Shown here: positions 1,459 to 16,840 of the stretch, one piece after another | Numbering within the stretch: the first letter of the stretch is position 1 | Layout: each line of letters starts with the position of its first letter | Virus record (IMG/VR): IMGVR_UViG_2529293061_000007 | Length of the DNA stretch: 35,846 bases | Source: a virus | Lineage: Duplodnaviria; Heunggongvirae; Uroviricota; Caudoviricetes | Reading direction: 5' to 3' (one strand) | Made by a program: the position numbers and the translations under genes | Notes under the pieces: model-generated | Database searches by the model: none | What the model was told of the DNA's origin: nothing | What the model saw: only the letters and a program-made list of their open reading frames with translations

Positions 1459-2622
1459 TTACACATCATTAGTACCTTCCTTATTTTTTGACTGGGACAA
1501 ATTTGGGACCGATGGGTTCAGGATCGAGTCTATTTGCCGTGCGTGTTCGGTAAGGTGATTAGGTGCGAGGTGAGCATATCGACGAACCATTTCGATAGAC
1601 TCCCAGCCTCTCATTTCCTGTAACACTGACAACGGGACACCGGCTTGAACCAGCCAGCTTGCCCAGGTGTGTCTCAAGTCGTGAAATCTGAAATCATCAA
1701 TACCAGCCCGTCTCAGCGCCGCTTTCCAGGCTGTGTTTGCGTCATACCGCATCTTCCTTACTGTTGGCGCTTTCGTTCCGTCTGGTTTGGTACAGCTTTC
1801 CTTGTACACAAATACCCAACGGTGATGATTCCCGATTTGTTTTTTCAATACGCGACATGCAGTATCATTCAGCGCAACGCCAATTGCGCGGTTTGATTTA
1901 CTCTCTTCCGGGTTTATCCATGCCACCCGGCGCTGCATATCTATTTGTTGCCATTCAAGGTTGATGATGTTCGAGCGTCTTAAGCCTGTTGCCAGTGCAA
2001 ATTCAACAACAGACTTTAATGGCTCCGGACATTCATCAATCAGCCTTTGTGCTTCATGGGGCTCCAGCCAGCGGATCCGTTTATTCTTTGGTTGAGGCAC
2101 TTTAATAATTGGTGCCTTATCCAGCATTTTCCATTCACGCTCTGCGGCTCTTAGTAGGGCCTTTATAAATGAAAGATGCGTAGCCTTCGTTGCAACGGAC
2201 GCTGGTTTTGGCGTGTATTCTGGAACAGGTTTCCCTTTTTTTCTGCATGCTTCTGCCCTGAGTTTCCAGTTTTCCTCATGACGCCGGTTCGTCATTTTCT
2301 GCATTGCTGAATAAATTTTTGATTCAGTAATGTCTCTTAGTTGCATTCCTGCGAAATGTTGAAGCCAGAATCCGATCCGGCTTTTGTCATCGTCCAGTGA
2401 TTTTTTATGTGCTTTCTCTTCAAGCCACCTGACACACGCTTCCTCGAACGTTATATCAGGTATTTCACCAAGTTTGCTGCCCCGCCATGCTTCAGCCTTT
2501 AGCTTGTCATGGAGTTCTGTCGCCTGCCTTTTGTCCTTTGTTCCAAGAGACTGTTTAAATCTTTTACCGTTCGGCAATGTGAAACTGGCGTACCATATTT
2601 CACCTCTGCGGAAGAGTGACAT
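1459..2622 (-). CDS. int: tyrosine site-specific integrase (P22/SfV-like)
   Basis: 387-aa ORF; C-terminal catalytic signature HDLRHTWAS...[19 protein letters not shown] at 2620-2622 with AGGAAA RBS; adjacent to tRNA. Confidence 0.9.
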
Positions 2623-2849
2623 TTTCTTTCCTCTGTTATGCCATCACCCGCGCTCACCTGGACAGTATGCAGCGGAGACTGAAGAGCCGCAATGCAGGCT
2701 TGTCGTGTTGTGAGGTAAGGAGATTTATTCTTAGTGGGATCTTTGCGTGTTGCCTGAAGACGCCCTGTGCGTATCCAGTTAATGGCAGTCGGTCTGGATA
2801 TCTTGAGAAAATGACAGGCCTCATCGAGTGTGAGGCTGTATGGCTCCAT
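2499..2849 (-). CDS. xis: excisionase (Xis, P22-type)
   Basis: Internal start [36 protein letters not shown] (excisionase-type HTH) preceded by GAGGGG RBS; 3' end overlaps int out of frame. Confidence 0.6.
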
Positions 2850-3154
2850 TATTTCCCCTCTTGCTGTGACATTGTTGAAAAATGGATACCAGCTCGTTGC
2901 TGCCAGACGATCCAACCGAGAGTCATATCCCATGCCATGTATTCGTTATCGCCGTTTTTTGCTCTCCGACGATCTACTAAGTCACCGAAACGCTTTTCCA
3001 TGAATAATTCATAAGCTTCGCGTTCATCTGGTTCTACTTCCAGAGATAGGAGTGCGATTTCATAAGCACGGCGCTCAATATCGTCTCGCACGTCAAGGCT
3101 GCTGATACGCTCTTTAATTTCTTTAATTAGTTCTTTGTCGGTAAAAGTGGTCAT
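2849..3154 (-). CDS. hypothetical early-left protein (101 aa; resembles CPS-53 YfdT by size and position)
   Basis: ORF with GGAG RBS; translationally coupled to neighbours; acidic, helical-looking translation. Confidence 0.6.
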   Translation of the reverse strand: MTTFTDKELIKEIKERISSLDVRDDIERRAYEIALLSLEVEPDEREAYELFMEKRFGDLVDRRRAKNGDNEYMAWDMTLGWIVWQQRAGIHFSTMSQQEGK

Positions 3155-3516
3155 TATGCTCCAGCCTCCGGTGCTTTTGGCATTACTGCCCAGTGAGTGA
3201 TATTGACGTTTTCAAGGTCCCCGACCTGAAATGTCCACTGCCATTCTCCGGTTTCTTTTTGTCCCCAGGTGTACCAGAGAGAACGCCAGCCAATTAGCCA
3301 GCCTTCTCCGTTAGCATCGAATAACAAAACACTTTCATTTGCTGGTGGCAGTTCAGTTGACACTGGTATTACTTTGTTTTCCTGTGCTGCACATTTAGCT
3401 TCAAGCGCATCGAATTTACGCACCAGGTATTCAGTATCTGTTTCATTTACTTTCAGATCTCGCGGTACACATCTCCCACGAAGAAACCCTTCCATTTCGA
3501 AAACATTCATGCGCAT
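3154..3516 (-). CDS. hypothetical early-left protein (120 aa; resembles CPS-53 YfdS)
   Basis: ORF with GGAG RBS 8 nt upstream of ATG; overlaps upstream gene by 10 nt. Confidence 0.6.
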   Translation of the reverse strand: MRMNVFEMEGFLRGRCVPRDLKVNETDTEYLVRKFDALEAKCAAQENKVIPVSTELPPANESVLLFDANGEGWLIGWRSLWYTWGQKETGEWQWTFQVGDLENVNITHWAVMPKAPEAGA

Positions 3517-4043
3517 TTGCGTAACTCCGATAACTCGTTAAAGCGTTCCATAAACATCCCGTAGGCATGGCCCGGTGCCAGTGGAATCACGTTGAACATC
3601 TCTGTTGCCGGGATACCTTCCAGTACAGGCCAGAAAGAGCCATCATCAAGCCCGAGATCGCGGCGTTCGGTTGCCAGCATGATGAGATCGGCATATTTCA
3701 CGGGCGTACTCATAACTGGGGGTAACCCGTATTTCTCACGGATTACGGCGTCTATTTTTTCTTCCATTTGTTTATAGTCAGGAAGAAGGCGTTTCAGTGG
3801 TGCGGGAATGTCCTGGCAATACGCTTCTGTTGCATCATGCATTAACGCTTCAAAAGCAAATTCCTGCGGCACCAGCTGGCTGCAAAGAACCGCATGTTGG
3901 GCGACGCTGTAGAAGTGCGAAAGATGACCGGCAAAGCGACAGATATTTGAAAGGGAAACCGCGATATCGTTAATATCGATGTCGTCTTTATTTATCCTGT
4001 CATAATAAAAATGCTTCCCGGAAAAAGTTTTAATAAATGACAT
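3507..4043 (-). CDS. HD-domain phosphohydrolase (YfdR-like 5'-deoxynucleotidase family)
   Basis: His/Asp metal-binding motifs (...FAGHLSHFYSVAQHAV...LMHDATEAY...); likely start is ATG at 4041-4043 with GTGGAG RBS rather than the upstream GTG at 4070. Confidence 0.7.
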   Translation of the reverse strand: MSFIKTFSGKHFYYDRINKDDIDINDIAVSLSNICRFAGHLSHFYSVAQHAVLCSQLVPQEFAFEALMHDATEAYCQDIPAPLKRLLPDYKQMEEKIDAVIREKYGLPPVMSTPVKYADLIMLATERRDLGLDDGSFWPVLEGIPATEMFNVIPLAPGHAYGMFMERFNELSELRKCA

Positions 4044-4170
4044 TTTGTTCTCCACGTATATGCGCTGCACCGCGCTGAATTCTGGTAAAAAGAATCCCTC
4101 ACCATCCGGCGATTATTGAGTAAATTACGTTTCCATAAATGCCCCCGCAGGGGCATTTGCAGTAATGAAA

Positions 4171-4995
4171 TCAGGCGGTGAAAGTACCAATAAAGGTTTC
4201 TACTTTGCTGTCCTTGAATTTCTCAACAAGCAGATCACGAAATTCGTTAGCCATTTCTTCCTGCACCGCCTCCAGCTGAATAATGCGCAGAACCAGTACC
4301 GGACGATCGCCAGTGATAATGCTGAGGCGTAATTTAAACGGACGTTCTTTCAGACCTTCAAACGGAATGCATTTAAATTCAAATGCCACTGGCATAATGT
4401 CTTTGGTCTTCGCTTCGACAGACTCCATCAGGGAGCGTTTGCCGCTGAAGTCATTATCTTCAAAATCAGCGGTCTGGTTTGCTTCAATCGTGATTTTACG
4501 GACCGCCGCAGCCGCTTTTGTTGCCTGAATGGTGTCACCATTAGCATCAAAGCCCACAAGGTAGTCGGCCCAGTCTTCAATCCATTCTGCCAGTGATTTC
4601 TGGGAGTTACGCTCGCCATTAACAGACAACAGAGCAGAGAACGGTGCTGTCTTTTTCAGTTTGAGAGTGGCGGTGTTATCTGCGTGACCTGGTTCATCAA
4701 TAGTACCCAGGTTAAGCACACTGACGGCACGCATATTATCAGCATCGATAAAGCAGCGGGTGCCTTCATCTGCAAGATCTTTAGAATAACGGGTAAAGTC
4801 ATCGATGCTGGCAGTGGAAAGCGCACCACGGAAACGGAAGCGATTTAAATTAAATTTTTCCAGATCATGAATGCGGAAATTCTCAGGCAATGCCACAGCA
4901 TCGGCACCAATCTTACTGATAATTTCATTAACACCCTGAGCAGAAATAAGGGCATGGATTTGATTAATTGCGGTTGCGTCTAAGTTCTGAGACAT
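4171..4995 (-). CDS. DUF2303-family protein (YfdQ-like)
   Basis: 274-aa ORF; translation recalled as YfdQ-like; typical coding composition. Confidence 0.65.
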
Positions 4996-5060
4996 AATAA
5001 GTCCTCACTATATAAAGATATTCAGTGATGAGATAAATAATCAGTTAATTAAGAACGATA

Positions 5061-5423
5061 TTAATGACCTGCTGCGCGGAGTTTTCCGTCAGGTTCACCG
5101 GCAAGAGTCAGTAATTGTCCCTGGTCTTCCTGCAGAATAGTCAGGCGACCACCGCGATTGACATACATCGGCGTTTCGGTGGTGTCTTCTTCGGAAATTT
5201 TCCCGCGGTTAGTCGGGCGAACATATGAGAGTTTGTGTTTGATTTTCACACGGTTCTCATCAAATGGTTCGATTTCCAGGTTGAGTGAGACCTTACCTTT
5301 GGTTTTCGTGTTCATCACACCGGAAGCGACTTCACTGAGAACTGCGCCGATTTTGGTTTCAAATACGCCGCCGTCCAGCTCCCCGATAAATGCCTGCACA
5401 TCAGTACTGCGTTCGCTAGCCAT
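5061..5423 (-). CDS. hypothetical protein (YfdP-like, 120 aa)
   Basis: Protein-like translation begins at internal ATG 5421-5423 (MASERSTDVQAFIGELDGG...) with GAGGAG RBS; the 5' extension of the 226-aa ORF translates to junk. Confidence 0.6.
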   Translation of the reverse strand: MASERSTDVQAFIGELDGGVFETKIGAVLSEVASGVMNTKTKGKVSLNLEIEPFDENRVKIKHKLSYVRPTNRGKISEEDTTETPMYVNRGGRLTILQEDQGQLLTLAGEPDGKLRAAGH

Positions 5424-5471
5424 TTTGCTGCTCCTCATCATATCGACCCTGCAAGGCCGATTAGTTTCTCC

Positions 5472-5560
5472 ACAAAACAGAGAAGAACACCTGCGGTGGC
5501 AGCCGCCAGGATGGATTGGGTTATGAGCCCGTCGTCCGGTGATGCTCTTCTCTGTTTTGT
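5472..5560. repeat. perfect 15-bp inverted repeat (ACAAAACAGAGAAGA / TCTTCTCTGTTTTGT) flanking a 59-bp GC-rich spacer
   Basis: Read directly: 5472-5486 is the reverse complement of 5546-5560; lies in an ORF-free GC-rich segment. Confidence 0.7.
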
Positions 5561-5860
5561 AAAAAGGACGGTCCCAGCCGTAAGCAAGGGTACAAACTGG
5601 TACCGCCAGGACTACACACAGCATAAAGTTGTGGTGCCGGGTGCCTCCCGGTGCCTGGCGAAGGTTGCACACCAGACGGGTGGGTATCCACAGAAGGTCG
5701 ACTGTCAGCCTCAACCTTAACCCGCGTGCGCTGAGCCGCATTCACCACAACGCTAAGGATTCTCTTTGGTTGAAAATACTTAGCTGTTATGTGCCTGTCT
5801 TTTCACCACTTCAGGCTCGGTGGTATCCTTTTAAGCCCGTATACATAAAAGGAAAATCAA

Positions 5861-6106
5861 ATGACTTTTGATGAAAAAGAACTTGATAATGCAATTAATA
5901 AAATCATCGTAACGTCGCTCTTTTCCTGTCTCAGCGACACTCAGCAGAAACAGTTCTACGAATCGGCTTTCAACATGATCGAGCGTTGTTGTTTCTGCGA
6001 TGCCGACGAGTTACCTGAAAAAATCAGGAAACAGTTGGCTGATGCTCTTCGAGTGCGACTTTCTGACCAATTTTCTGAAATGTGCTCTCCGAATTTGGAC
6101 AAATAG
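5861..6106 (+). CDS. hypothetical small protein (81 aa), transcribed opposite to the early-left operon
   Basis: ATG with AAGGA RBS; AT-rich; helical-looking translation; stop TAG followed by a hairpin. Confidence 0.5.
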   Translation: MTFDEKELDNAINKIIVTSLFSCLSDTQQKQFYESAFNMIERCCFCDADELPEKIRKQLADALRVRLSDQFSEMCSPNLDK

Positions 6107-6299
6107 AAAAAGGCCATTTCCATTCAGGGTCTGATGGAAATACTTCAGCCTGTTCCAAAGCACGGCGTAAAGAGAACACAACTCCAGCCATAATCTGATG
6201 TTTCCCATTGGTCCAGCTATCGCCGCTCTGATCTACAGGGGCGGCTATGTCGTATGACCAAACGACTTCACAGTTATTGTTTAAAATCTGGACTTTCAT
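6024..6299 (-). CDS. hypothetical protein (first ORF downstream of PL; start probably ATG at 6297-6299)
   Basis: AGGTG RBS before internal ATG; but the ORF reads through a terminator-like hairpin and overlaps the convergent + ORF, so it is uncertain. Confidence 0.3.
   Translation of the reverse strand: MKVQILNNNCEVVWSYDIAAPVDQSGDSWTNGKHQIMAGVVFSLRRALEQAEVFPSDPEWKWPFSICPNSESTFQKIGQKVALEEHQPTVS
6101..6141 (-). terminator. candidate intrinsic terminator (tL1-like) on the minus strand
   Basis: 8-bp stem ATTTCCAT/ATGGAAAT (6116-6123 / 6134-6141), 10-nt loop, then CCTTTTTCTATTT on the minus strand; stem is AT-rich, so weak. Confidence 0.35.
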
Positions 6300-6404
6300 T
6301 TCATACACCTGCTTTAACATGAGTGCCTAGTGGCACAACATGACTCAACGAATCATCCTGGACTTCATATGCCCCAGGCGGCTACTTCGTGGGCGTCCTG
6401 CCTG

Positions 6405-6455
6405 TTCGTTGTTTCGCTTGGGTACATTATGTATCTCAAAGGTACATTGTCAAGT
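6405..6455 (-). promoter_or_regulatory. candidate PL promoter with OL operators
   Basis: Minus-strand TTGACA (6448-6453), 16-nt spacer, CATAAT (6426-6431); two GGTACAT motifs overlap, matching the half-sites seen in the cI-cro intergenic region. Confidence 0.5.
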
Positions 6456-6492: not shown

Positions 6493-7167
6493 TTAGGCTT
6501 TGATTTTGTATCTTCTTGGTTTTCCTGAGAAAATCACTGTACCAATTATAGAGCAATTACCGTTGATCTTAATGTAAGGCTCAGGCCAATTTGGGTTTAA
6601 CGCTTTGAGATAACGCTGTGTCCCATCTTCTATCAACCTTTTGAAGGTGGTTTCACCTGTATCGTGCATCAATGCAATAACGTCGTCACCGTGGCAGGCA
6701 GGTACTTCAGGATCGACAAAAATCATGTCTCCCGGGCGGTACTCATCAATCATTGAATCACCTATCACCCGCAAGATATAAGTCATTTCCCCACAGGGTA
6801 CAGGGCAGGGATACGTTTCTGCTGTGCTCAAATCAACCTCAGAATATCCAACTTCTTTCCATGCTCCGGCCTGTACCCATGATATGACAGGGACTAATGT
6901 GATTTGTTTATTAGTGATTGAAACATCAGGTTTTTTTGTGATGTTCGTTGTCTGGTGTTCTTGATCGAGCCATCCGACAGGCAGGTCGAAACATTTTTCG
7001 ATGTGTCGTGCCATGCTGTCACCGATATTTTTAGTAGCACCATCTCCCATAAACCTGCTGGTCTGGGTTGGCTCGCGATCAATCATAGTGGCAAAGGAAG
7101 AATTCCCGCCAACACCATCTCTCAGTTTTCTGGCGTTAGACCGCCGGATGTCATGGATTGTTTTCAT
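6493..7167 (-). CDS. cI: CI-type phage repressor (N-terminal DNA-binding domain + S24 LexA-like autopeptidase domain)
   Basis: C-terminal GDSM (catalytic Ser) and FKRL (Lys) S24 motifs; divergent from a cro-like gene; essentially leaderless start. Confidence 0.85.
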   Translation of the reverse strand: MKTIHDIRRSNARKLRDGVGGNSSFATMIDREPTQTSRFMGDGATKNIGDSMARHIEKCFDLPVGWLDQEHQTTNITKKPDVSITNKQITLVPVISWVQAGAWKEVGYSEVDLSTAETYPCPVPCGEMTYILRVIGDSMIDEYRPGDMIFVDPEVPACHGDDVIALMHDTGETTFKRLIEDGTQRYLKALNPNWPEPYIKINGNCSIIGTVIFSGKPRRYKIKA

Positions 7168-7257
7168 AACGAAATTAAAACCCTTGTACCGTTAAGGTAC
7201 AAGTATCTTGAAGGTTCATTTCAATCATGTAATATGTACACCGGAGGTACATATTGT
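7168..7257. promoter_or_regulatory. OR/PR/PRM region between cI and cro
   Basis: Palindrome CTTGTACC-GTTAA-GGTACAAG (7183-7203) and AATATGTAC-ACCGGAG-GTACATATT (7231-7255); PR candidate TTGAAG (7208-7213) / TAATAT (7230-7235). Confidence 0.55.
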
Positions 7258-8403: not shown

Positions 8404-9345
8404 ATGAGCACTAAATTAACCGGCTATGTATGGGATGGTTGCGCTGCATCAGGCATGAAATTATCCAGCGTGGCAATTATGGCCCGCCTGGCTGATTTCA
8501 GTAATGACGAAGGTGTGTGCTGGCCATCAATTGAAACCATTGCCCGCCAGATTGGCGCGGGAATGAGTACCGTCAGAACGGCTATCGCACGGCTGGAAGC
8601 AGAAGGCTGGTTAACGCGTAAGGCGCGTCGCCAGGGTAACCGCAATGCGTCGAATGTTTATCAGCTTAACGTTGCGAAGCTTCAGGCAGCGGCATTTTCT
8701 CAACTGTCAGATTCTGACCCGTCAAAATCTGACGCATCAAAATCTGACCCGTCAAAATTTGATGCGTCGAAATCTGGCAAAAAAGCGGGTTTTCACCCGT
8801 CAGAATCTGGCGGGGATCCGTCAGTAAAATCAAAACATGATCCGTCAGATAAAAAAACTTCTCGTCCGGACGCTTCGCAACCGGACACGCAGACGGCTGA
8901 ACAGGAGTTTTTAACTCGCCATCCTGATGCGGTTGTATTCAGCCCTAAAAAGCGCCAGTGGGGAACGCAGGGTGATTTGACCTGCGCACAGTGGCTCTGG
9001 AAAAAAATCATCGCCCTGTACGAGCAGGCCGCCGAATGTGACGGCGAGGTGGTTCGTCCCAAAGAACCGAACTGGACAGCCTGGGCAAACGAAATTCGCC
9101 TGATGTGTGTGCAGGATGGTCGTACTCATAAACAAATCTGCGAGATGTACAGCCGCGTCAGTCGCGATCCGTTCTGGTGCCGTAACGTGCTCAGCCCGTC
9201 GAAGCTGCGGGAAAAATGGGATGAGCTTTCCCTGCGCTTATCGCCGTCCGTCAGCACGTACACCGAAAAACGCGAAGACCCGTACTTCAAAGCCAGTTAC
9301 GACAACGTGGACTACAGCCAGATCCCGGCAGGATTCAGGGGGTGA
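8404..9345 (+). CDS. phage replication initiation protein (O-like, N-terminal HTH) with iteron-containing linker
   Basis: 313-aa ORF; N-terminal HTH-like region; central SDPSK/SDASK repeats encoded by tandem DNA repeats; sits at the lambda O position. Confidence 0.7.
   Translation: MSTKLTGYVWDGCAASGMKLSSVAIMARLADFSNDEGVCWPSIETIARQIGAGMSTVRTAIARLEAEGWLTRKARRQGNRNASNVYQLNVAKLQAAAFSQLSDSDPSKSDASKSDPSKFDASKSGKKAGFHPSESGGDPSVKSKHDPSDKKTSRPDASQPDTQTAEQEFLTRHPDAVVFSPKKRQWGTQGDLTCAQWLWKKIIALYEQAAECDGEVVRPKEPNWTAWANEIRLMCVQDGRTHKQICEMYSRVSRDPFWCRNVLSPSKLREKWDELSLRLSPSVSTYTEKREDPYFKASYDNVDYSQIPAGFRG
8705..8850 (+). repeat. tandem iterons (probable phage origin of replication) inside the O-like gene
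   Basis: Four tandem 15-bp units TCTGACCCGTCAAAA / TCTGACGCATCAAAA / TCTGACCCGTCAAAA / TTTGATGCGTCGAAA (8713-8772), further CCGTCAG motifs, then an A-rich tract GATAAAAAAA. Confidence 0.65.
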
Positions 9346-9347
9346 GC

Positions 9348-9836
9348 ATGAGTCTTTTGAATGACGTTCAGAAATTCATTGAAGCCCATCCGGGCTGTAC
9401 TTCCGGAGATATTGCGGATGCTTTTGCCGGTTACTCACGGCAGCGCGTTCTGCAGTCAGCAAGCAAGTTACGTCAGAGTGGGCGTGTGGCTCACCGTTGT
9501 GAAGGAGATACACGCAGACATTTCCCGCGCCTGACTGAGAGAGCGCAGGAACCGGAACCACAACCAGTTCGTGAAACCAGACCTGTGCGCAATTTCTATG
9601 TCGGCACTAACGATCCCCGTGTGATTTTGTGCCTGACCCGCCAGGCGGAAGAACTGGAGTCCAGGGGCTTATACCGTCGTGCTGCAACCGTGTGGATGGC
9701 GGCATTCCGTGAAAGCCACTCCCAGCCAGAACGAAACAATTTTCTGGCGCGTCGTGAGCGGTGCTTACGGAAAAGCAGCAAGCGCGCTGCATCGGGTGAA
9801 GAGTGGTATCTGTCAGGGAATTACGTGGGGGCTTAA
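9348..9836 (+). CDS. putative PerC-family (Pch-like) transcriptional regulator
   Basis: C-terminal segment ...ELESRGLYRRAATVWMAAF...ERNNFLARRERCL resembles the PerC signature as recalled; ATG at 9348 with GGGGG RBS. Confidence 0.45.
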   Translation: MSLLNDVQKFIEAHPGCTSGDIADAFAGYSRQRVLQSASKLRQSGRVAHRCEGDTRRHFPRLTERAQEPEPQPVRETRPVRNFYVGTNDPRVILCLTRQAEELESRGLYRRAATVWMAAFRESHSQPERNNFLARRERCLRKSSKRAASGEEWYLSGNYVGA

Positions 9837-10489
9837 TGAGTAATAAATATTGCCAGGCGCTGGTGGAACTGCGGAACAAACCAGCCCATGAACTGAAGGA
9901 AGTGGGCGATCAGTGGCGCACGCCGGACAACATTTTCTGGGGAATTAACACCCTGTTTGGCCCGTTTGTTCTGGATCTGTTCACTGACGGTGATAACGCC
10001 AAATGTGCCGCGTATTACACGGCGGAAGACAACGCGCTGGCGCATGACTGGTCAGAACGTCTTGCGGAGCTTAAAGGTGCTGCCTTTGGTAATCCCCCAT
10101 ACAGCCGCGCCAGTCAGCATGAGGGGCAATACATCACCGGCATGCGTTACATCATGAAACATGCCAGTGCCATGCGTGATAAGGGCGGGCGCTATGTTTT
10201 CCTGATCAAAGCTGCCACCAGCGAAGTGTGGTGGCCGGAAGATGCAGATCATATTGCTTTTATTCGCGGGCGTATTGGTTTTGAACTGCCTGTCTGGTTT
10301 ATCCCGAAAGACGAGAAGCAGGTACCGACAGGAGCTTTTTTCGCTGGTGCTATTGCTGTTTTTGACAAGACCTGGAAGGGACCGGCAATCAGCTACATCG
10401 GGCGCGATGAACTTGAGGCATGTGGTGAGGCGTTTCTGGCGCAGGTTCGCCAGCAGGCGGAAAAACTGGTCAGGGAGATGGCGGCATGA
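9836..10489 (+). CDS. phage DNA N6-adenine methyltransferase (Dam-like)
   Basis: Catalytic motif GNPPYS; ATGA-coupled start at 9836; size about 217 aa. Confidence 0.8.
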   Translation: MSNKYCQALVELRNKPAHELKEVGDQWRTPDNIFWGINTLFGPFVLDLFTDGDNAKCAAYYTAEDNALAHDWSERLAELKGAAFGNPPYSRASQHEGQYITGMRYIMKHASAMRDKGGRYVFLIKAATSEVWWPEDADHIAFIRGRIGFELPVWFIPKDEKQVPTGAFFAGAIAVFDKTWKGPAISYIGRDELEACGEAFLAQVRQQAEKLVREMAA

Positions 10490-10812
10490 CGACGTTAACT
10501 CAATGCCAGCAGCAGGTGCTGGATATGCTGATTTCTTATCAGAAAGAACGTGGCTTCCCGCCAACCAATCAGGAGGTGGCAACCATGCTGGGATACCGTT
10601 CGGTGAATGCAGCGGTGGAGCATCTTCGCGCACTGGAGAAAAAAGGCGTCATCACGATAAAGCGTGGCGTGGCCCGGGGGATAACGCTTCATACCGCGGT
10701 GAAGGACGACGACAGCGAGGCGGTCGGGATTATCCGCGCACTGCTTGCCGGTGAGGAAAACGCAAGGCTGCGTGCAACCCACTGGTTACATGAGAGGGAC
10801 CTGAAAGTATGA
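10486..10812 (+). CDS. LexA N-terminal DNA-binding-domain protein (no peptidase domain)
   Basis: Translation ...TQCQQQVLDMLISYQKERGFPPTNQEVATMLGYRSVNAAVEHLRALEKKGVI... parallels the LexA winged-helix DBD; 108 aa only. Confidence 0.7.
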   Translation: MTTLTQCQQQVLDMLISYQKERGFPPTNQEVATMLGYRSVNAAVEHLRALEKKGVITIKRGVARGITLHTAVKDDDSEAVGIIRALLAGEENARLRATHWLHERDLKV

Positions 10813-11198
10813 AGCTGATCCTGCCTTTTCCGCCCAGCGTGAACACGTACTGGCGACACCCCAACAAAGGGGCGTTTGCTGGTAAGAGCCTGATAAGCGC
10901 GGCGGGGCGAAAATTCCAGAGCGCGGCGTGCGCAGCAATAGTTGAGCAGTTACGTCGTCTGCCGAAACCAACGTCGGCACCTGCTTCAGTGGAGATCGTG
11001 TTGTTTCCTCCGGATAACCGGATCCGCGATCTGGACAACTATAACAAGGCGCTGTTTGACGCCCTGACCCACGCGGGTGTGTGGGAGGACGACAGTCAGG
11101 TGAAAAGAATGCTGGTGGAGTGGGGACCGGTTATCCCGGAAGGGAAGGTCGAGATCACTATCAGTAAGTACGAGAAAACGGCGGGTGCAGCCGCCTGA
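10809..11198 (+). CDS. rusA: RusA-family Holliday junction resolvase
   Basis: ...PPSVNTYWRH...DLDNYNKALFDALTHAGVWEDDSQV... RusA signature with catalytic Asp cluster. Confidence 0.85.
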   Translation: MKLILPFPPSVNTYWRHPNKGAFAGKSLISAAGRKFQSAACAAIVEQLRRLPKPTSAPASVEIVLFPPDNRIRDLDNYNKALFDALTHAGVWEDDSQVKRMLVEWGPVIPEGKVEITISKYEKTAGAAA

Positions 11199-11217
11199 TC
11201 AAGAGGAGAAACGAAGT

Positions 11218-12015
11218 ATGAATAATCTGATGGTCATTGATGGTATTGAAGTTCGTCGTGATGCTTATGGTCGTTACAGCCTGAACGATCTGCACAGGGC
11301 TGCTGGTTCTCTGGATAAGCATAAGCCCGCATTCTGGCTCCGCAATGAGCAAACTGAACGCTTAATAAGCGAGTTGCAGATTTGCAACTCGGTCAATATA
11401 GCGCCAGTTAATGTCATTCGTGGTGGAAATAACCAGGGAACGTATGTCTGCAAGGAACTGGTGTATGCCTATGCAATGTGGATTAGCCCGTCATTCCATC
11501 TGAAGGTGATCCGTACTTTTGACATGGTAACCAGCATACCGGAAAAATTATCCGGGCAGGCTGCTGACAAGATGCAGGCTGGTGTGATTCTGCTGGACTT
11601 TATGCGTCGGGAGTTAAATCTGTCTAACTCATCTGTGCTTGGGGCCTGTCAGAAACTCCAGGAGGCTGTTGGCTTACCGAATCTGGCACCGCGCTATGCC
11701 ATTGATGCTCCTGCTGACGCGCCTGATGGCTCAAGCCGCCCCACGCTGTCACTGAGTGCACTGCTGAAGCAGTATGGTATCCGCCTGACAGCTAATCAGG
11801 CATATCACCAGATGGTGAAGCTGGGGATCGTCGAGCAGCGCGAACGATACAGCCGTACCGCGATTAACAACATCAAAAAATTCTGGTCGCTGACAGCGAA
11901 AGGCTGCATGTTCGGCAAGAATATCACCAGTCCCGCAAATCCGCGCGAGACGCAGCCGCATTTCTTCGAATCCCGATTCCCTGAGCTGTTAAAGCTGCTC
12001 GATACCGTTCATTGA
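11218..12015 (+). CDS. KilA-N domain protein (Roi-like; BstA-like alternative)
   Basis: N-terminal MNNLMVIDGIEVRRDAYGRYSLNDLHRAAG... KilA-N-type sequence; AGAGGAGA RBS; C-terminal domain unassigned. Confidence 0.65.
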   Translation: MNNLMVIDGIEVRRDAYGRYSLNDLHRAAGSLDKHKPAFWLRNEQTERLISELQICNSVNIAPVNVIRGGNNQGTYVCKELVYAYAMWISPSFHLKVIRTFDMVTSIPEKLSGQAADKMQAGVILLDFMRRELNLSNSSVLGACQKLQEAVGLPNLAPRYAIDAPADAPDGSSRPTLSLSALLKQYGIRLTANQAYHQMVKLGIVEQRERYSRTAINNIKKFWSLTAKGCMFGKNITSPANPRETQPHFFESRFPELLKLLDTVH

Positions 12016-12016
12016 G

Positions 12017-13012
12017 GTGACCGTGAGAGCACTACTGACCCCTGAAATAGCCCCGCGTATGGGGATCGTATTGTTCAGACCCGGTTCAGAGCTGATGCCC
12101 CTGTTTATGCAGGGGCGTGTCCTGCTGGAGCCTGAGCCGGAACGTTATTCATCTTTCGCCAGTGGTGCCGTTCCCGCGGCATCACAACCGCTGGCGGATG
12201 ATCCTGCCGTTCGAGCCGTGTTCTGCAATGAGGCAGTGATCCGTCGTGCTGGTGGCGTGGAATGTCTTGAAAGCTGGTTACTTCGTGAAAAGGGCTGTCA
12301 GTGGCCTCATTCCGACTGGCACAGCGAGAACATGACCACAATGCGACACGCGCCGGGCGCGATCCGTCTGTGCTGGCACTGCGATAACCAGCTGCGCGAT
12401 CAGTTCACGGAACGGCTGGAATCAATGGCAACGGATAACTGTGCCCGCTGGGTGTTGTCTGTTGTGCGTCGGGATCTCGGTTTTGATGACAGTCACGTTG
12501 TGACAATGCCGGAACTGTGCTGGTGGCTGATTCGTAATGACCTGGCGGATGCCTTACCGGAAAGTGCAGCCCGTAAGGCACTGAGATTACCGAAGCCTGT
12601 TGTGCCGTCTGTCACCCGGGAAAGTGACCTTGTGCCTTCGGTTCCTGCCACCAGCATCATCCAGGATAAGGCGAAAAAGGTGCTGGCGCTGAAAGTGGAT
12701 CCGGAGTCGCCGGAGTCTTTTATGTTACGCCCAAAACGTCGCCGCTGGGTTAATGAAAAGTACACGCGCTGGGTTAAGACACAGCCGTGTGCATGTTGTG
12801 GAAAGCCTGCTGATGATCCCCACCACCTGATAGGCCACGGTCAGGGTGGGATGGGTACAAAAGCGCATGACCTCTTTGTGTTGCCTTTGTGCAGAAAGCA
12901 TCACGACGATCTGCATGCGGATACCGTGGCATTTGAAGAGAAGTATGGCTCCCAGCTGGAGCTGATATTTCGTTTTATCGATCGTGCGCTGGCAATAGGC
13001 GTACTGGCGTAA
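12017..13012 (+). CDS. DUF968-type protein with C-terminal Cys/His (HNH-like) motif
   Basis: GTG start overlapping upstream stop; C-terminal ...CACCGKPADDPHHLIGHG...LCRKHHDDLH...; nin-region position. Confidence 0.5.
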   Translation: MTVRALLTPEIAPRMGIVLFRPGSELMPLFMQGRVLLEPEPERYSSFASGAVPAASQPLADDPAVRAVFCNEAVIRRAGGVECLESWLLREKGCQWPHSDWHSENMTTMRHAPGAIRLCWHCDNQLRDQFTERLESMATDNCARWVLSVVRRDLGFDDSHVVTMPELCWWLIRNDLADALPESAARKALRLPKPVVPSVTRESDLVPSVPATSIIQDKAKKVLALKVDPESPESFMLRPKRRRWVNEKYTRWVKTQPCACCGKPADDPHHLIGHGQGGMGTKAHDLFVLPLCRKHHDDLHADTVAFEEKYGSQLELIFRFIDRALAIGVLA

Positions 13013-13025
13013 GTGGAGAACGAGC

Positions 13026-13778
13026 ATGAACCTTGAAGCTTTACCAAAATATTACTCCCCAAAATCTCCAAAATTGAGTGATGACGCACCGGCGACAGGC
13101 TCGGGTGGTTTAACAATTACAGATGTGATGGCTGCGCAGGGGATGGTGCAGTCGAAAGCACCGCTTGGGTTTGCCTTATTCCTGGCAAAAGTTGGTGTTC
13201 AGGATCCTCAGTTTGCGATTGAAGGTCTGCTCAATTACGCGATGGGACTGGATAACCCGACATTGAACAAATTGAGTGAAGAAATCCGGTTACAGATCAT
13301 CCCTTACCTTGTGAATTTTGCCTTTGCTGATTATTCCAGGTCTGCGGCAAGTAAGGCTCGCTGTGAGCATTGTGCTGGTACTGGATTTCATAATGTATTG
13401 CGCGAGGTGGTGAAACACTCCAGAAGCGGGGAATCTGTTATCAAGGAAGAGTGGGTGAAGGAACTATGTCAGCATTGTCATGGTAAGGGAGAAGTCAGCA
13501 CAGCGTGCAGAGGGTGTAAGGGTAAAGGTATTGTCCTGGATGAAAAAAGGACCCGGCTTCATGGCACGCCTGTTTATAAGATTTGTGGGCGTTGCAATGG
13601 AAACCGATTTAGCCGTTTACCAACCACACTGGCGCGGAATCATGTCCAGAAGCTGGTACCAGACCTGACGGATTATCAGTGGTACAAAGGATATGCAGAT
13701 GTCATTGATAAACTGGTTACAAAGTGCTGGCAGGAAGAAGCATATGCAGAGACACAATTGAGAAAGGTGACAAGATAA
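13026..13778 (+). CDS. late-gene antitermination protein Q
   Basis: Cys-rich zinc-binding segment (CEHCAGTG...CQHCHGKG...CRGCKGKG...CGRCNG); immediately upstream of the lysis region; GGAG RBS. Confidence 0.8.
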   Translation: MNLEALPKYYSPKSPKLSDDAPATGSGGLTITDVMAAQGMVQSKAPLGFALFLAKVGVQDPQFAIEGLLNYAMGLDNPTLNKLSEEIRLQIIPYLVNFAFADYSRSAASKARCEHCAGTGFHNVLREVVKHSRSGESVIKEEWVKELCQHCHGKGEVSTACRGCKGKGIVLDEKRTRLHGTPVYKICGRCNGNRFSRLPTTLARNHVQKLVPDLTDYQWYKGYADVIDKLVTKCWQEEAYAETQLRKVTR

Positions 13779-13980: not shown

Positions 13981-14766
13981 ATGTATGTTTTTGAGTTAAT
14001 CAAGCCAGGCAGTAATCTTAAGTTTGAAAACAGAGAGTTAGAATGGACGTTTAATAACTTATTATCCCATTTAGAAACTGCATTTTATGATGCTAATGTA
14101 GCATTAAATTTATTCGAACAGGAAAGAACTAAGAATAACAGTAAATTCGATAATATTTCTCAGACATGGCAAGCTGATGTACAGAAACGACAAGCACTGG
14201 AAATGCTGGTTCGTAAAGAGTTTGGTTATCAACCTTATGAATATTCAGAACAGGTTTTTTCAGAGGTCGAGCTACGTCTAAAAAGAGAAAAATGGAATAA
14301 CGGTGAATATCCGTTGGCTCATCAACACAGATTGATCTTCTTACATGCAAAATCATTTCTCTACGCTTTGGATGCTATTGATAAATTTTTAAAGGTAATT
14401 TCAAAAGAAAATGGCGCGCCAGAGAACATTAAAAAATTGCATGAACAGCTTTCTAAAGACTTTCCGGATTTAAGAAAGGTAAGGAATTCAGCTCAACACA
14501 TGGAAGACAGAGTTCGTGGGCTTGGTGCAGAGAAAGAACCAAAGCCAATAAAACTCAAACCTGTAAATAATATTCATGTTGTTGCACCTCAGGGGGCATT
14601 GATGTTGAATAACTTATTCGGAACTAAATTTGGGTGCACTATGGCTGATGGCTATTATGGTGAAGTAGATATTTCGACAGAGTCTTTGGCAAAGTTGCAA
14701 AATTTAATCCAAAAAGTTTTTAATTCCTTCAGTTGGGAAGGACCAAAGCAACACCTTCCTCGATAA
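13981..14766 (+). CDS. AT-rich moron protein (261 aa) with two Rx4H motifs; candidate HEPN-type ribonuclease / Abi protein
   Basis: Visibly AT-rich codon usage versus flanks; motifs RLIFLH and RNSAQH; sits between Q and the holin (the stx position of Stx phages); terminator follows. Confidence 0.6.
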   Translation: MYVFELIKPGSNLKFENRELEWTFNNLLSHLETAFYDANVALNLFEQERTKNNSKFDNISQTWQADVQKRQALEMLVRKEFGYQPYEYSEQVFSEVELRLKREKWNNGEYPLAHQHRLIFLHAKSFLYALDAIDKFLKVISKENGAPENIKKLHEQLSKDFPDLRKVRNSAQHMEDRVRGLGAEKEPKPIKLKPVNNIHVVAPQGALMLNNLFGTKFGCTMADGYYGEVDISTESLAKLQNLIQKVFNSFSWEGPKQHLPR

Positions 14767-16231: not shown

Positions 16232-16840
16232 ATGGACTATTTTTACATAGCAACTAAATCGCAAAATCCTTGGGTTAAGTATAGGCCTTTGGCAGTAGGA
16301 GATTTAGCTAGCACCTCATTCCCAAATCCCTTTTTTAATTATTTCTTAAGTTCAAACATCCCTCCAATACCAGTAAATGTTAACGGGCATCTAACTGACT
16401 ATACGAGAATGCAGTGGCTTTATGGCCTAAAGACAGGGTCACTTACTACTAAGTGTTCTGTACAAGATATAGCGGCAGTTGGTCAAGAATTGGCTATGCA
16501 TTTTTGTAAATATACTAGAGAACTGATTTGGGAAGCCGTTCGAGTTGAATGTTACCCAAAAAAGCCTTCAAGACAGAAATGCTTATGGGTTTCACAAGGT
16601 GAAGAAAGTCTTCACTATTGGATTTCGCAGTTGGGATTGGGGGACAATCAGACTGTGTTCAGAGTTGAGTTGGATGGAGTTATACATGAGGCGAGTGATG
16701 AACATTTGATGAATGACGATATACCGTATGATATTGCCTTAGAAAAAGCTCATAAATATTGGAGTGGTGAAATAGTTGATCCGTTAAAAAAGGAAATACT
16801 TTTTGAAGGAAATATGCGGATTCTAGAGCACATTTTATAG
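16232..16840 (+). CDS. AT-rich moron protein (202 aa), function unknown
   Basis: Located after Rz/Rz1 (the lambda bor-region equivalent); AT-rich; terminator-like element follows; no family recognised. Confidence 0.55.
   Translation: MDYFYIATKSQNPWVKYRPLAVGDLASTSFPNPFFNYFLSSNIPPIPVNVNGHLTDYTRMQWLYGLKTGSLTTKCSVQDIAAVGQELAMHFCKYTRELIWEAVRVECYPKKPSRQKCLWVSQGEESLHYWISQLGLGDNQTVFRVELDGVIHEASDEHLMNDDIPYDIALEKAHKYWSGEIVDPLKKEILFEGNMRILEHIL

Follow-up and report, generated by a model that had tools for sequence, protein, structure and literature searches.

The yfdPQRST module of an SfV-type prophage lies in a predicted repressor-controlled early-left operon and has a proposed role in host-replication takeover

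A block of five co-oriented minus-strand open reading frames (ORFs) was found at positions 2849-5423 of the viral record IMGVR_UViG_2529293061_000007, a stretch of 35,846 nucleotides that is referred to here as the window. The block lies between the xis/int genes and the cI repressor gene and is assigned, by its sequence, to the yfdP-yfdQ-yfdR-yfdS-yfdT module of an SfV-type temperate phage integrated at thrW, beside proA. We propose with moderate confidence that this yfdPQRST module belongs to a repressor-controlled early-left operon and that its most likely role is the takeover of host replication.

The five products correspond in order, length and sequence to the proteins encoded by the cryptic prophage CPS-53 (KplE1) of Escherichia coli K-12. 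When the translated proteins were aligned globally with CPS-53 YfdP to YfdT, lengths were identical, and YfdP (120 amino acids [aa], 5061-5423, PF27127 by cluster tag), YfdQ (274 aa, 4171-4995, DUF2303), YfdR (178 aa, 3507-4043, HD-domain 5'-deoxynucleotidase type), YfdS (120 aa, 3154-3516, C-terminal DUF551) and YfdT (101 aa, 2849-3154, phrog_660), all encoded on the minus strand, were 99.2, 98.5, 97.8, 95.0 and 95.0% identical to their K-12 counterparts, respectively. A 4-kb query across the block showed 99.7% identity to the DNA of the Shigella flexneri serotype-converting phage SfV, in whose annotation the same ORFs are orf32, orf31, orf30, orf29 and orf28, respectively. The query was also 99.8% identical to many E. 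coli chromosomes, where the RefSeq gene names yfdT, yfdS, yfdR, yfdQ and yfdP agree with the order P-Q-R-S-T and with the orthology to K-12. A preliminary description of this DNA had placed five co-oriented genes, labelled yfdP-yfdT-like, between the immunity region and int; the ORFs begin and end exactly where it put them and the label proved exact, as did the DUF2303 assignment of the 274-aa product, which scored 307.7 bits against a Pfam cut-off of 26.6 (PF10065, profile positions 2-269 of 269). The five products are all acidic.

The same description had called the genes translationally coupled, which holds for three of the five junctions. The yfdR and yfdS genes overlap by 10 nt, and both yfdS/yfdT and yfdT/xis are joined through TAATG, the latter when xis is counted from the methionine at which the excisionase profile starts. 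In contrast, yfdP and yfdQ are separated by 65 nt, and yfdQ and yfdR by 127 nt with a strong hairpin inside the gap. The annotated ATG of yfdR at 4043 has a GGAG 8 nt upstream, and an extension to a GTG at 4070 is possible. Gene order, lengths and junctions are the same in CPS-53. In K-12, however, the module survives as a remnant beside torI, and intS lies at the far end of the element, whereas in the window cI, the operators, xis and int adjoin the module, and the prophage carrying it is apparently intact.

The role of the block had been described as uncharacterised, which is outdated, since an activity of the K-12 counterparts, which are nearly identical in sequence, on DnaA and oriC has been published (Noguchi and Katayama, Front Microbiol 2016; PMC4776307). 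The published data on DnaA binding and oriC inhibition were obtained with proteins 95-99% identical to those of the window and should apply to the latter. In that work, yfdQ-yfdR-yfdS-yfdT was isolated as a multicopy suppressor of the over-initiating hda-185, and suppression needed yfdQ, yfdR and either yfdS or yfdT; yfdP was not needed. Extra copies inhibited initiation in wild-type, dnaAcos, seqA, DARS and diaA backgrounds, and oriC replication in vitro was inhibited by extracts oversupplied with YfdQRST (PMC4776307). Purified K-12 YfdR, which differs from the YfdR of the window at 4 of 178 residues, bound domain I of DnaA via Phe46 and competed there with DiaA and DnaB (PMC4776307). The authors proposed an ancestral, lambda P-like shutdown of host replication and named SfV orf29-31 as homologues. 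They drew a functional analogy to lambda P and to SirA of Bacillus subtilis, each a small protein that binds DnaA and blocks initiation at oriC, SirA using the domain I residue equivalent to Phe46 (PMC4776307). No sequence or fold relationship links either protein to YfdR. Furthermore, lambda P binds domain III of DnaA and is itself a helicase loader, whereas YfdR is an HD enzyme that needs YfdQ and either YfdS or YfdT in vivo (PMC4776307).

In the proposed mechanism, the promoter at 6426-6453 would be derepressed on induction and the block would be transcribed ahead of xis-int. YfdR would bind the Phe46 surface of domain I of DnaA, which DiaA and DnaB also use, and, together with YfdQ and either YfdS or YfdT, would prevent initiation at oriC, as was shown for the K-12 proteins under oversupply. 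Firing of oriC would then be off while the phage replicates, and the freed host DnaB and DnaC may serve the phage. An O-like replication initiator is encoded at 8404-9345, and family searches of the early-right genes gave no match to a helicase or helicase-loader family. Since an O-like initiator is present and neither a helicase nor a loader was detected, the phage would have to borrow DnaB and DnaC from its host.

Several points weigh against this explanation. The functional data all come from multicopy overexpression in K-12, that is, from outside any phage context; initiation was unaffected when yfdQRST was deleted, and the authors allow that overexpression may have produced an artefact (PMC4776307). 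In their pull-downs, YfdQ, YfdS and YfdT were not stably bound to DnaA or YfdR. Because yfdP was dispensable in the only functional assay, the replication-inhibition phenotype cannot explain the linkage of yfdP to yfdQ that is described below. On the side of the phage, the helicase loader is taken to be absent because family searches gave no match, and the left promoter, its operators and read-through to yfdP are predictions from sequence only.

The candidate left promoter (PL) is on the minus strand at 6410-6453, directly after the cI terminator (6481-6462). It consists of a -35 element TTGACA (6453-6448), a 16-nt spacer and a -10 element CATAAT (6431-6426), and in the promoter scan it was a near-consensus sigma-70 promoter with 11 of 12 positions matching. 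The spacer is filled by a 17-bp palindrome, TGTATCTCAAAGGTACA, at 6430-6446, with a second copy at 6410-6426, and the same operator-like motif occurs three times in the cI-cro intergenic region (7185-7201, 7202-7218 and 7235-7251). When the whole window was searched for TGTAYC-N5-GGTACA with at most one mismatch, all sites fell in the PL and cI-cro clusters. With at most two mismatches, 12 matches were found compared to 3.06 expected, and none of 100 shuffles reached 12. The arrangement at 6410-6453 and 7185-7251 is that expected of a left operator with PL and of a right operator, respectively. From the candidate PL, a leftward string of genes runs through orf33, yfdP, yfdQ, yfdR, yfdS, yfdT, xis and int, and on the minus strand from 6400 to 2500 the terminator-like sites were only weak, with no strong intrinsic terminator. 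An operator-overlapped leftward promoter followed by a co-oriented string ending in xis-int is the organisation of a lambdoid early-left operon, and the block would form the distal part of such an operon under repressor control. Since the promoter is overlapped by operators and no strong intrinsic terminator follows it, the genes should be silent in the lysogen and expressed upon induction or infection. A 2025 survey of lambdoid phages (PMC12315714) found a 'yfbR/yfdQ/yfdP' cluster to be common in early-left operons; the first product was called a putative 5'-nucleotide phosphatase and the other two were given as of unknown function.

This predicted silence bears on a different explanation, in which the block is expressed in the prophage and benefits the lysogen by aiding tolerance of oxidative, acid or DNA damage, for example by slowing replication initiation. 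Reported K-12 phenotypes include raised sensitivity to H2O2 and acid on deletion of CPS-53, yfdQ or yfdS, and to methyl methanesulfonate (MMS) on deletion of yfdQ (cited in PMC4776307). The block is also kept in many E. coli: 3640 of 5426 complete genomes had a match to the block query, and in 872 of those the match covered at least 80% of the query. However, prevalence of this kind can simply mirror how common SfV- and lambdoid-type prophages are, and CPS-53 is a decayed remnant, so that expression there may not reflect the intact phage. Moreover, with an operator-overlapped promoter in front of it, the block should be repressed, and the promoter scan found no separate promoter upstream of yfdP. 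A benefit to the lysogen is considered improbable. It has also been reported that a second resident phage is triggered to form plaques when YfdQ is produced.

The first ORF downstream of the candidate PL is orf33 of SfV (6024-6320, minus strand, 98 aa; phrog_3195, E value 6e-70). It was considered as an N-type antiterminator for the early-left operon, but its product is acidic (isoelectric point [pI] 5.0) and not N-like. A plus-strand ORF of 81 aa (5861-6106) is convergent with orf33, overlapping it by 83 nt. A strong ribosome-binding site, AAGGA, precedes its ATG by 7-8 nt, and the ORF has a family of its own (phrog_3311, E value 1e-55). Only the minus-strand orf33 of the pair is annotated by the Prokaryotic Genome Annotation Pipeline, and a gene opposing the early-left operon would be odd. 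The 437 nt immediately upstream of yfdP (5424-5860), where no gene is annotated in SfV, probably represent a decayed gene: the reading frame of yfdP remains open as far as 5741, a 75-aa ORF is present at 5521-5748 together with a 25-nt inverted repeat (5472-5496/5536-5560, 84% complementary), and in E. coli strain E8 RefSeq records a pseudogene with a frameshift at the corresponding position. A terminator-like hairpin is located on the plus strand at 5805-5824.

The DnaA-binding protein of the block, YfdR, retains the residues of an HD-superfamily enzyme. In a sample of 52 distinct YfdR-like proteins from other genomes, 29-98% identical to it, R36, H50, H69, D70, E73, D78, K84, D119 and E126 were each at least 95% conserved, and H50, H69, D70 and D119 at least 98%. 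Conservation of the metal-site residues across the 52 homologues indicates that the H...HD...D metal site is intact. The clear His/Asp motifs of 5'-deoxynucleotidase type that had been read from the sequence are thus borne out, and a loss of metal-binding residues on alignment, which would have spoken against that reading, was not seen. YfdR scored just under the Pfam HD cut-offs (25.0 compared to 25.9 bits for YfbR-like, and 17.3 compared to 22.5 bits for HD_3). Membership in the HD superfamily is based on the motif and on the closest solved structure, the HD protein Atu1052 (2gz4, E value 3e-14), with which the metal-site residues align.

The relationship of YfdR to YfbR, the HD-domain 5'-deoxynucleotidase of E. 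coli (PDB 2paq), is a remote one within a common HD fold. Against the NCBIfam YfbR equivalog NF003009, YfdR scored 20.5 bits, and since the cut-off is 122, it is not a YfbR orthologue and only a remote relative; phmmer gave an E value of 0.88 between the two, and NCBIfam contributed nothing further. By eye, the motif patterns are alike (R-F/W, H, HD-x-x-E-x4-D-x-P-x-P-x-K and K-x-A-D), with R36, H50, H69-D70, E73, D78 and D119 of YfdR corresponding to R18, H33, H68-D69, E72, D77 and D137 of YfbR. The N- and C-terminal motifs of YfbR were misplaced against YfdR by MAFFT, so that H33 and D137 were matched by eye only. Structural homology of YfdR to YfbR has been reported, together with affinities for nucleotides far below those of YfbR (Zimmerman et al. 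2008, as cited in PMC4776307), and YfdR differs from YfbR also in binding DnaA. YfdR probably remains an enzyme, a weak 5'-deoxynucleotidase or deoxynucleoside monophosphate (dNMP) phosphatase, with that activity likely to be secondary.

Two explanations centre on the enzymatic activity of YfdR. According to the first, YfdR would act in nucleotide disposal or salvage like Dmp of phage T5, dephosphorylating dNMPs released from host DNA. Its active-site residues are conserved, RefSeq names it a 5'-deoxynucleotidase, and PHROG 318, which it matches with an E value of 1e-111, is named, like related families, 'deoxyribonucleoside 5' monophosphate phosphatase'. The phosphatase name, however, was transferred by homology, deletion of yfdR had no effect on the yield of cytidine monophosphate in an engineered strain, and the nucleotide affinity reported in PMC4776307 is low. 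We regard a T5 Dmp-like primary function as the least probable of the explanations weighed here. Temperate lambdoid phages are not known to degrade host DNA, which counts against it as well.

According to the second, which the preliminary description had raised, the block would be a counter-defence locus: the HD enzyme would degrade immune signalling nucleotides or reshape pools of deoxynucleoside triphosphates and dNMPs against the cyclic-oligonucleotide-based antiphage signalling system (CBASS), Thoeris or nucleotide-depletion defences, and the other four products would be further anti-defence factors. The strong conservation of the HD catalytic residues, the early expression expected of the genes, their place in a mosaic accessory region beside xis, and the small size and acidity of the five products, as in many anti-defence proteins, are all compatible with this. 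The known anti-CBASS and anti-Thoeris nucleotide-degrading enzymes belong to folds other than HD. No experimental or homology link to counter-defence was found, and none of the five proteins had a match in PADLOC (E value of 0.01 or lower), which covers defence systems and not anti-defence proteins. The reported affinities of YfdR for nucleotides lie much below those of YfbR (PMC4776307), and the HD gene is present in only 54 of the 85 loci that carry the yfdP-yfdQ core. A counter-defence role, drawn only from the presence of the HD domain, received no support from these results and is considered highly improbable.

The count of HD genes comes from a survey of 85 loci, 80 from bacterial assemblies taken as one genome per species and 5 from phages, that span Enterobacterales, Marinobacter, Hahella, Pseudomonas, Azorhizophilus, Vibrio, Halomonas and Xanthomonas/Xylella phages, with YfdQ identities from 99% down to 38%. 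A search of viral contigs with 12 sequences gave only loci that were 99-100% identical and were of no use for diversity. A YfdP homologue was encoded immediately upstream of the DUF2303 gene in 84 of the 85 loci, with gaps mostly of 0-66 nt, and the single exception was cut by a contig end; this linkage makes YfdP-YfdQ an invariant pair. The DUF2303 family comprises 1465 representative clusters at 50% identity (E value of 0.001 or lower), and the 99%-identical cluster representative of YfdP and all 120 of its listed homologues carry a precomputed PF27127 tag. A YfdR-like HD gene was found downstream in 54 loci and was absent from 31, whereas YfdS-like and YfdT-like genes were found in 6 and 4 of the 85 loci, respectively. 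By these counts YfdR is a frequent but optional partner of YfdP-YfdQ, mostly in Enterobacterales, and YfdS and YfdT belong to a mosaic accessory set near xis, which makes the block a composite.

Where the HD gene was absent, the neighbours of the pair included genes of DNA metabolism. A gene for single-stranded DNA-binding protein (SSB) flanked it in four cases (Vibrio phage 34E29.1, Proteus, Kistimonas and Hahella), and other flanking genes encoded a DEDD 3'-5' exonuclease, YqaJ-type exonucleases, a domain like the RecBCD inhibitor gp5.9 of T7, and Gp157. RecT/exo was found beside the pair in the Stx2a phage phiON-2011, and a recombinase, an exonuclease and SSB in Xylella phage Usme and Xanthomonas phage MET23-P3. 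These neighbours point, by association only, to a link of YfdP-YfdQ with DNA replication or recombination.

From the same neighbourhoods it could be argued that the YfdP-YfdQ pair, alone or joined by YfdR, acts as an accessory to phage recombination or single-stranded DNA metabolism, and that the effect on DnaA is a side effect of overexpression. Such a unit might protect DNA ends, modulate SSB or stand in for a missing recombination (Rec) module. The SSB, YqaJ, DEDD exonuclease, RecT/exo and gp5.9-like neighbours of distant pairs are in keeping with this, as is the reported sensitivity of the yfdQ deletion to MMS and H2O2 (cited in PMC4776307); in the early-left operon of the phage studied here, the ORF list and the Pfam and PHROG scans contained no gene of the exo, bet, erf or recT type. 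Adjacency in early operons is, however, weak evidence. The survey of lambdoid phages found the cluster to be neither restricted to nor universal in phages lacking a recombination module, so that it occurs in phages with a complete Rec module too (PMC12315714). The YfdQ family is uniformly acidic, with a median pI of 5.1, which argues weakly against non-specific DNA binding, and the YfdQ model is unlike any solved recombinase, annealing protein, Gam or Ku. On balance, a recombination unit with an incidental effect on DnaA is considered unlikely. None of the four alternatives, the lysogen benefit, the T5 Dmp-like function, counter-defence and the recombination unit, has direct support.

The gap between yfdQ and yfdR contains a perfect 9-bp GC-rich hairpin, AAAUGCCCC-UGCG-GGGGCAUUU, on the minus strand at 4137-4158, with a 4-nt loop, located 13 nt after the yfdQ stop codon and followed by no U-tract. 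The regions downstream of the yfdQ stop were compared across the surveyed loci. Of 76 distinct loci, 62 (82%) had a continuous stem of 8 bp or more that lay no further than 60 nt from the stop, and the figure for control windows taken within the gene was 16%. Stem sequences vary from genus to genus, a U-run follows in only 3 cases, and the stems occur with or without a following HD gene. It appears that the helix rather than the sequence is conserved. The hairpin looks like a feature of the yfdPQ unit, which may be a leaky terminator, a pause site, or a hairpin for processing, stabilising or forming the 3' end of the mRNA.

An AlphaFold2 model of YfdQ built on 139 diverse family members had a mean predicted local distance difference test score (pLDDT) of 92.9 and a predicted template-modelling score of 0.85. 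A Foldseek search of PDB entries released to 8 April 2026 returned nothing significant; the top matches were Hsp90 N-domains with an E value of 0.05 and template-modelling (TM) scores below 0.2. In the viral predicted-structure library, only DUF2303 or unnamed phage proteins were matched, including one of Gordonia phage Herod. Recombinase, Gam/Ku, clamp and nuclease ideas were all dropped for YfdQ, as nothing supported them. The AlphaFold2 model of YfdP (pLDDT 85.7) showed a long helix packed on three long antiparallel strands. An NTF2 fold is not claimed for it, as its Foldseek matches in the PDB were weak and partial (E values 0.02-0.09, TM scores of at most 0.38).

A sequence search of a PDB copy later than that used by Foldseek retrieved entry 9o7m, 'YfdQ Protein', which the Foldseek copy lacked, with 274 aa and 36 chains in one entry. 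It matched the family profile with an E value of 2.9e-86 and the YfdQ of the window with an E value of 1.9e-44 over residues 16-273, at about 40% identity, and its chain was 98.8% identical to a protein of Xanthomonas phage MET23-P3. The 36 chains suggest a large assembly. The literature search found no paper on 9o7m, on a YfdQ structure or on MET23-P3, and neither the YfdP homologue nor the downstream 401-aa protein of the source phage was present in the PDB. The source, of the MET23-P3/Xylella Usme group, is a distant phage in which the same DUF2303 family is likewise preceded by a yfdP homologue. In contrast to the window, no HD gene adjoins the pair there, and it is followed by a long coiled-coil-like protein, a recombinase, an exonuclease and SSB. 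In these Xylella and Xanthomonas phages (L086 4904-6316 and L088 6991-8196), the protein encoded after yfdQ is 400-470 aa long and has a long central stretch extremely rich in A, E, R and Q, with the look of a coiled coil or of low complexity.

YfdP-YfdQ would be a separate unit linked to phage DNA metabolism, and our best guess is a multi-subunit, protein-binding helper of replication or recombination. Tentatively, the pair may go further than that and constitute an autonomous, widely mobile cassette with a conserved 3' hairpin of its own, forming a large oligomer with a fold unlike those of characterised proteins and acting as a new factor on the replication and recombination machinery of host or phage, with YfdR as one of several interchangeable partners. 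Under this possible, less probable reading, it may for example take over DnaA, DnaB or SSB, or shield DNA ends.

The two remaining proteins of the module are, by their PHROG matches, each built from two separately shared modules. YfdS passed the DUF551 cut-off marginally (PF04448, 22.3 compared to 22 bits, residues 50-117), and its N- and C-terminal halves match different PHROGs. YfdT has no Pfam domain in the Pfam scan, and its residues 1-50 match phrog_5117, phrog_60 and phrog_3323, an N-terminus common to other phage accessory proteins. DUF551 has been described as a portable domain that is found also in a variant of Ea22. YfdS and YfdT resemble the accessory genes of the lambda ea/b region (the Ea22 family and DUF551 carriers) in the DUF551 domain of YfdS, in being two-module mosaics and in their xis-proximal position, but they have no Ead_Ea22 coiled-coil signature. 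The only activity reported for them is that either supports YfdQ-YfdR in oriC inhibition (PMC4776307).

The window starts in proA (1-1254), and a tRNA-Thr gene (1369-1444) adjoins int (1459-2622, minus strand), which encodes a tyrosine integrase with the Pfam domain Phage_integrase. The xis gene lies on the minus strand at 2499-2933, or at 2499-2849 when counted from the methionine that fits the excisionase profile; its product carries Pfam HTH_17 and aligns with the excisionase family phrog_2907 from residue 29. Together, xis and int form the distal end of the same leftward gene string as the yfd block. The cI repressor, an S24 peptidase, is encoded at 6493-7167, and beyond it are divergent cro- and cII-like genes and then the O-like initiator. 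In the early-right region (8404-13778), the initiator is followed by a PerC-like activator, a Dam methylase, a protein with a LexA DNA-binding domain, RusA, a KilA-N protein, a DUF968/HNH protein and a Q antiterminator with a DnaJ-type zinc-finger motif.

Three islands of low GC content (0.38-0.44 compared to about 0.55 in their flanks) contain ORFs that carry no functional annotation. The island at 13981-14766 holds a 261-aa ORF (phrog_5322) flanked by the genes for the Q antiterminator and the holin, that at 16232-16840 a 202-aa DUF2441 protein after the Rz gene, and that at 29264-29794 a 176-aa ORF (phrog_5485) flanked by tail genes, one tape-measure-like and the other DNA-circulation-like. 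From their position and composition, these ORFs may be morons, that is, cargo genes.

Taken together, the block was already known: it is a very common prophage module that carries a name and for which a function, if a tentative one, has been published. New from this analysis are the operator-overlapped PL, the conservation of the YfdR residues, the YfdP-YfdQ linkage counts, the hairpin after yfdQ, and the YfdQ fold with its match to 9o7m. The activity on DnaA is known only through overexpression from a decayed prophage, and an intact SfV-type prophage suits testing whether oriC is switched off in lytic growth. Since yfdP was dispensable in the DnaA work, the YfdP-YfdQ pair is not explained by that work and is the main residual question of the block. 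The pair is very widespread and combines strict pairing, a conserved terminal hairpin, a neighbourhood of SSB, exonuclease and recombinase genes, and a fold that had no solved relatives to April 2026 except 9o7m, by sequence.

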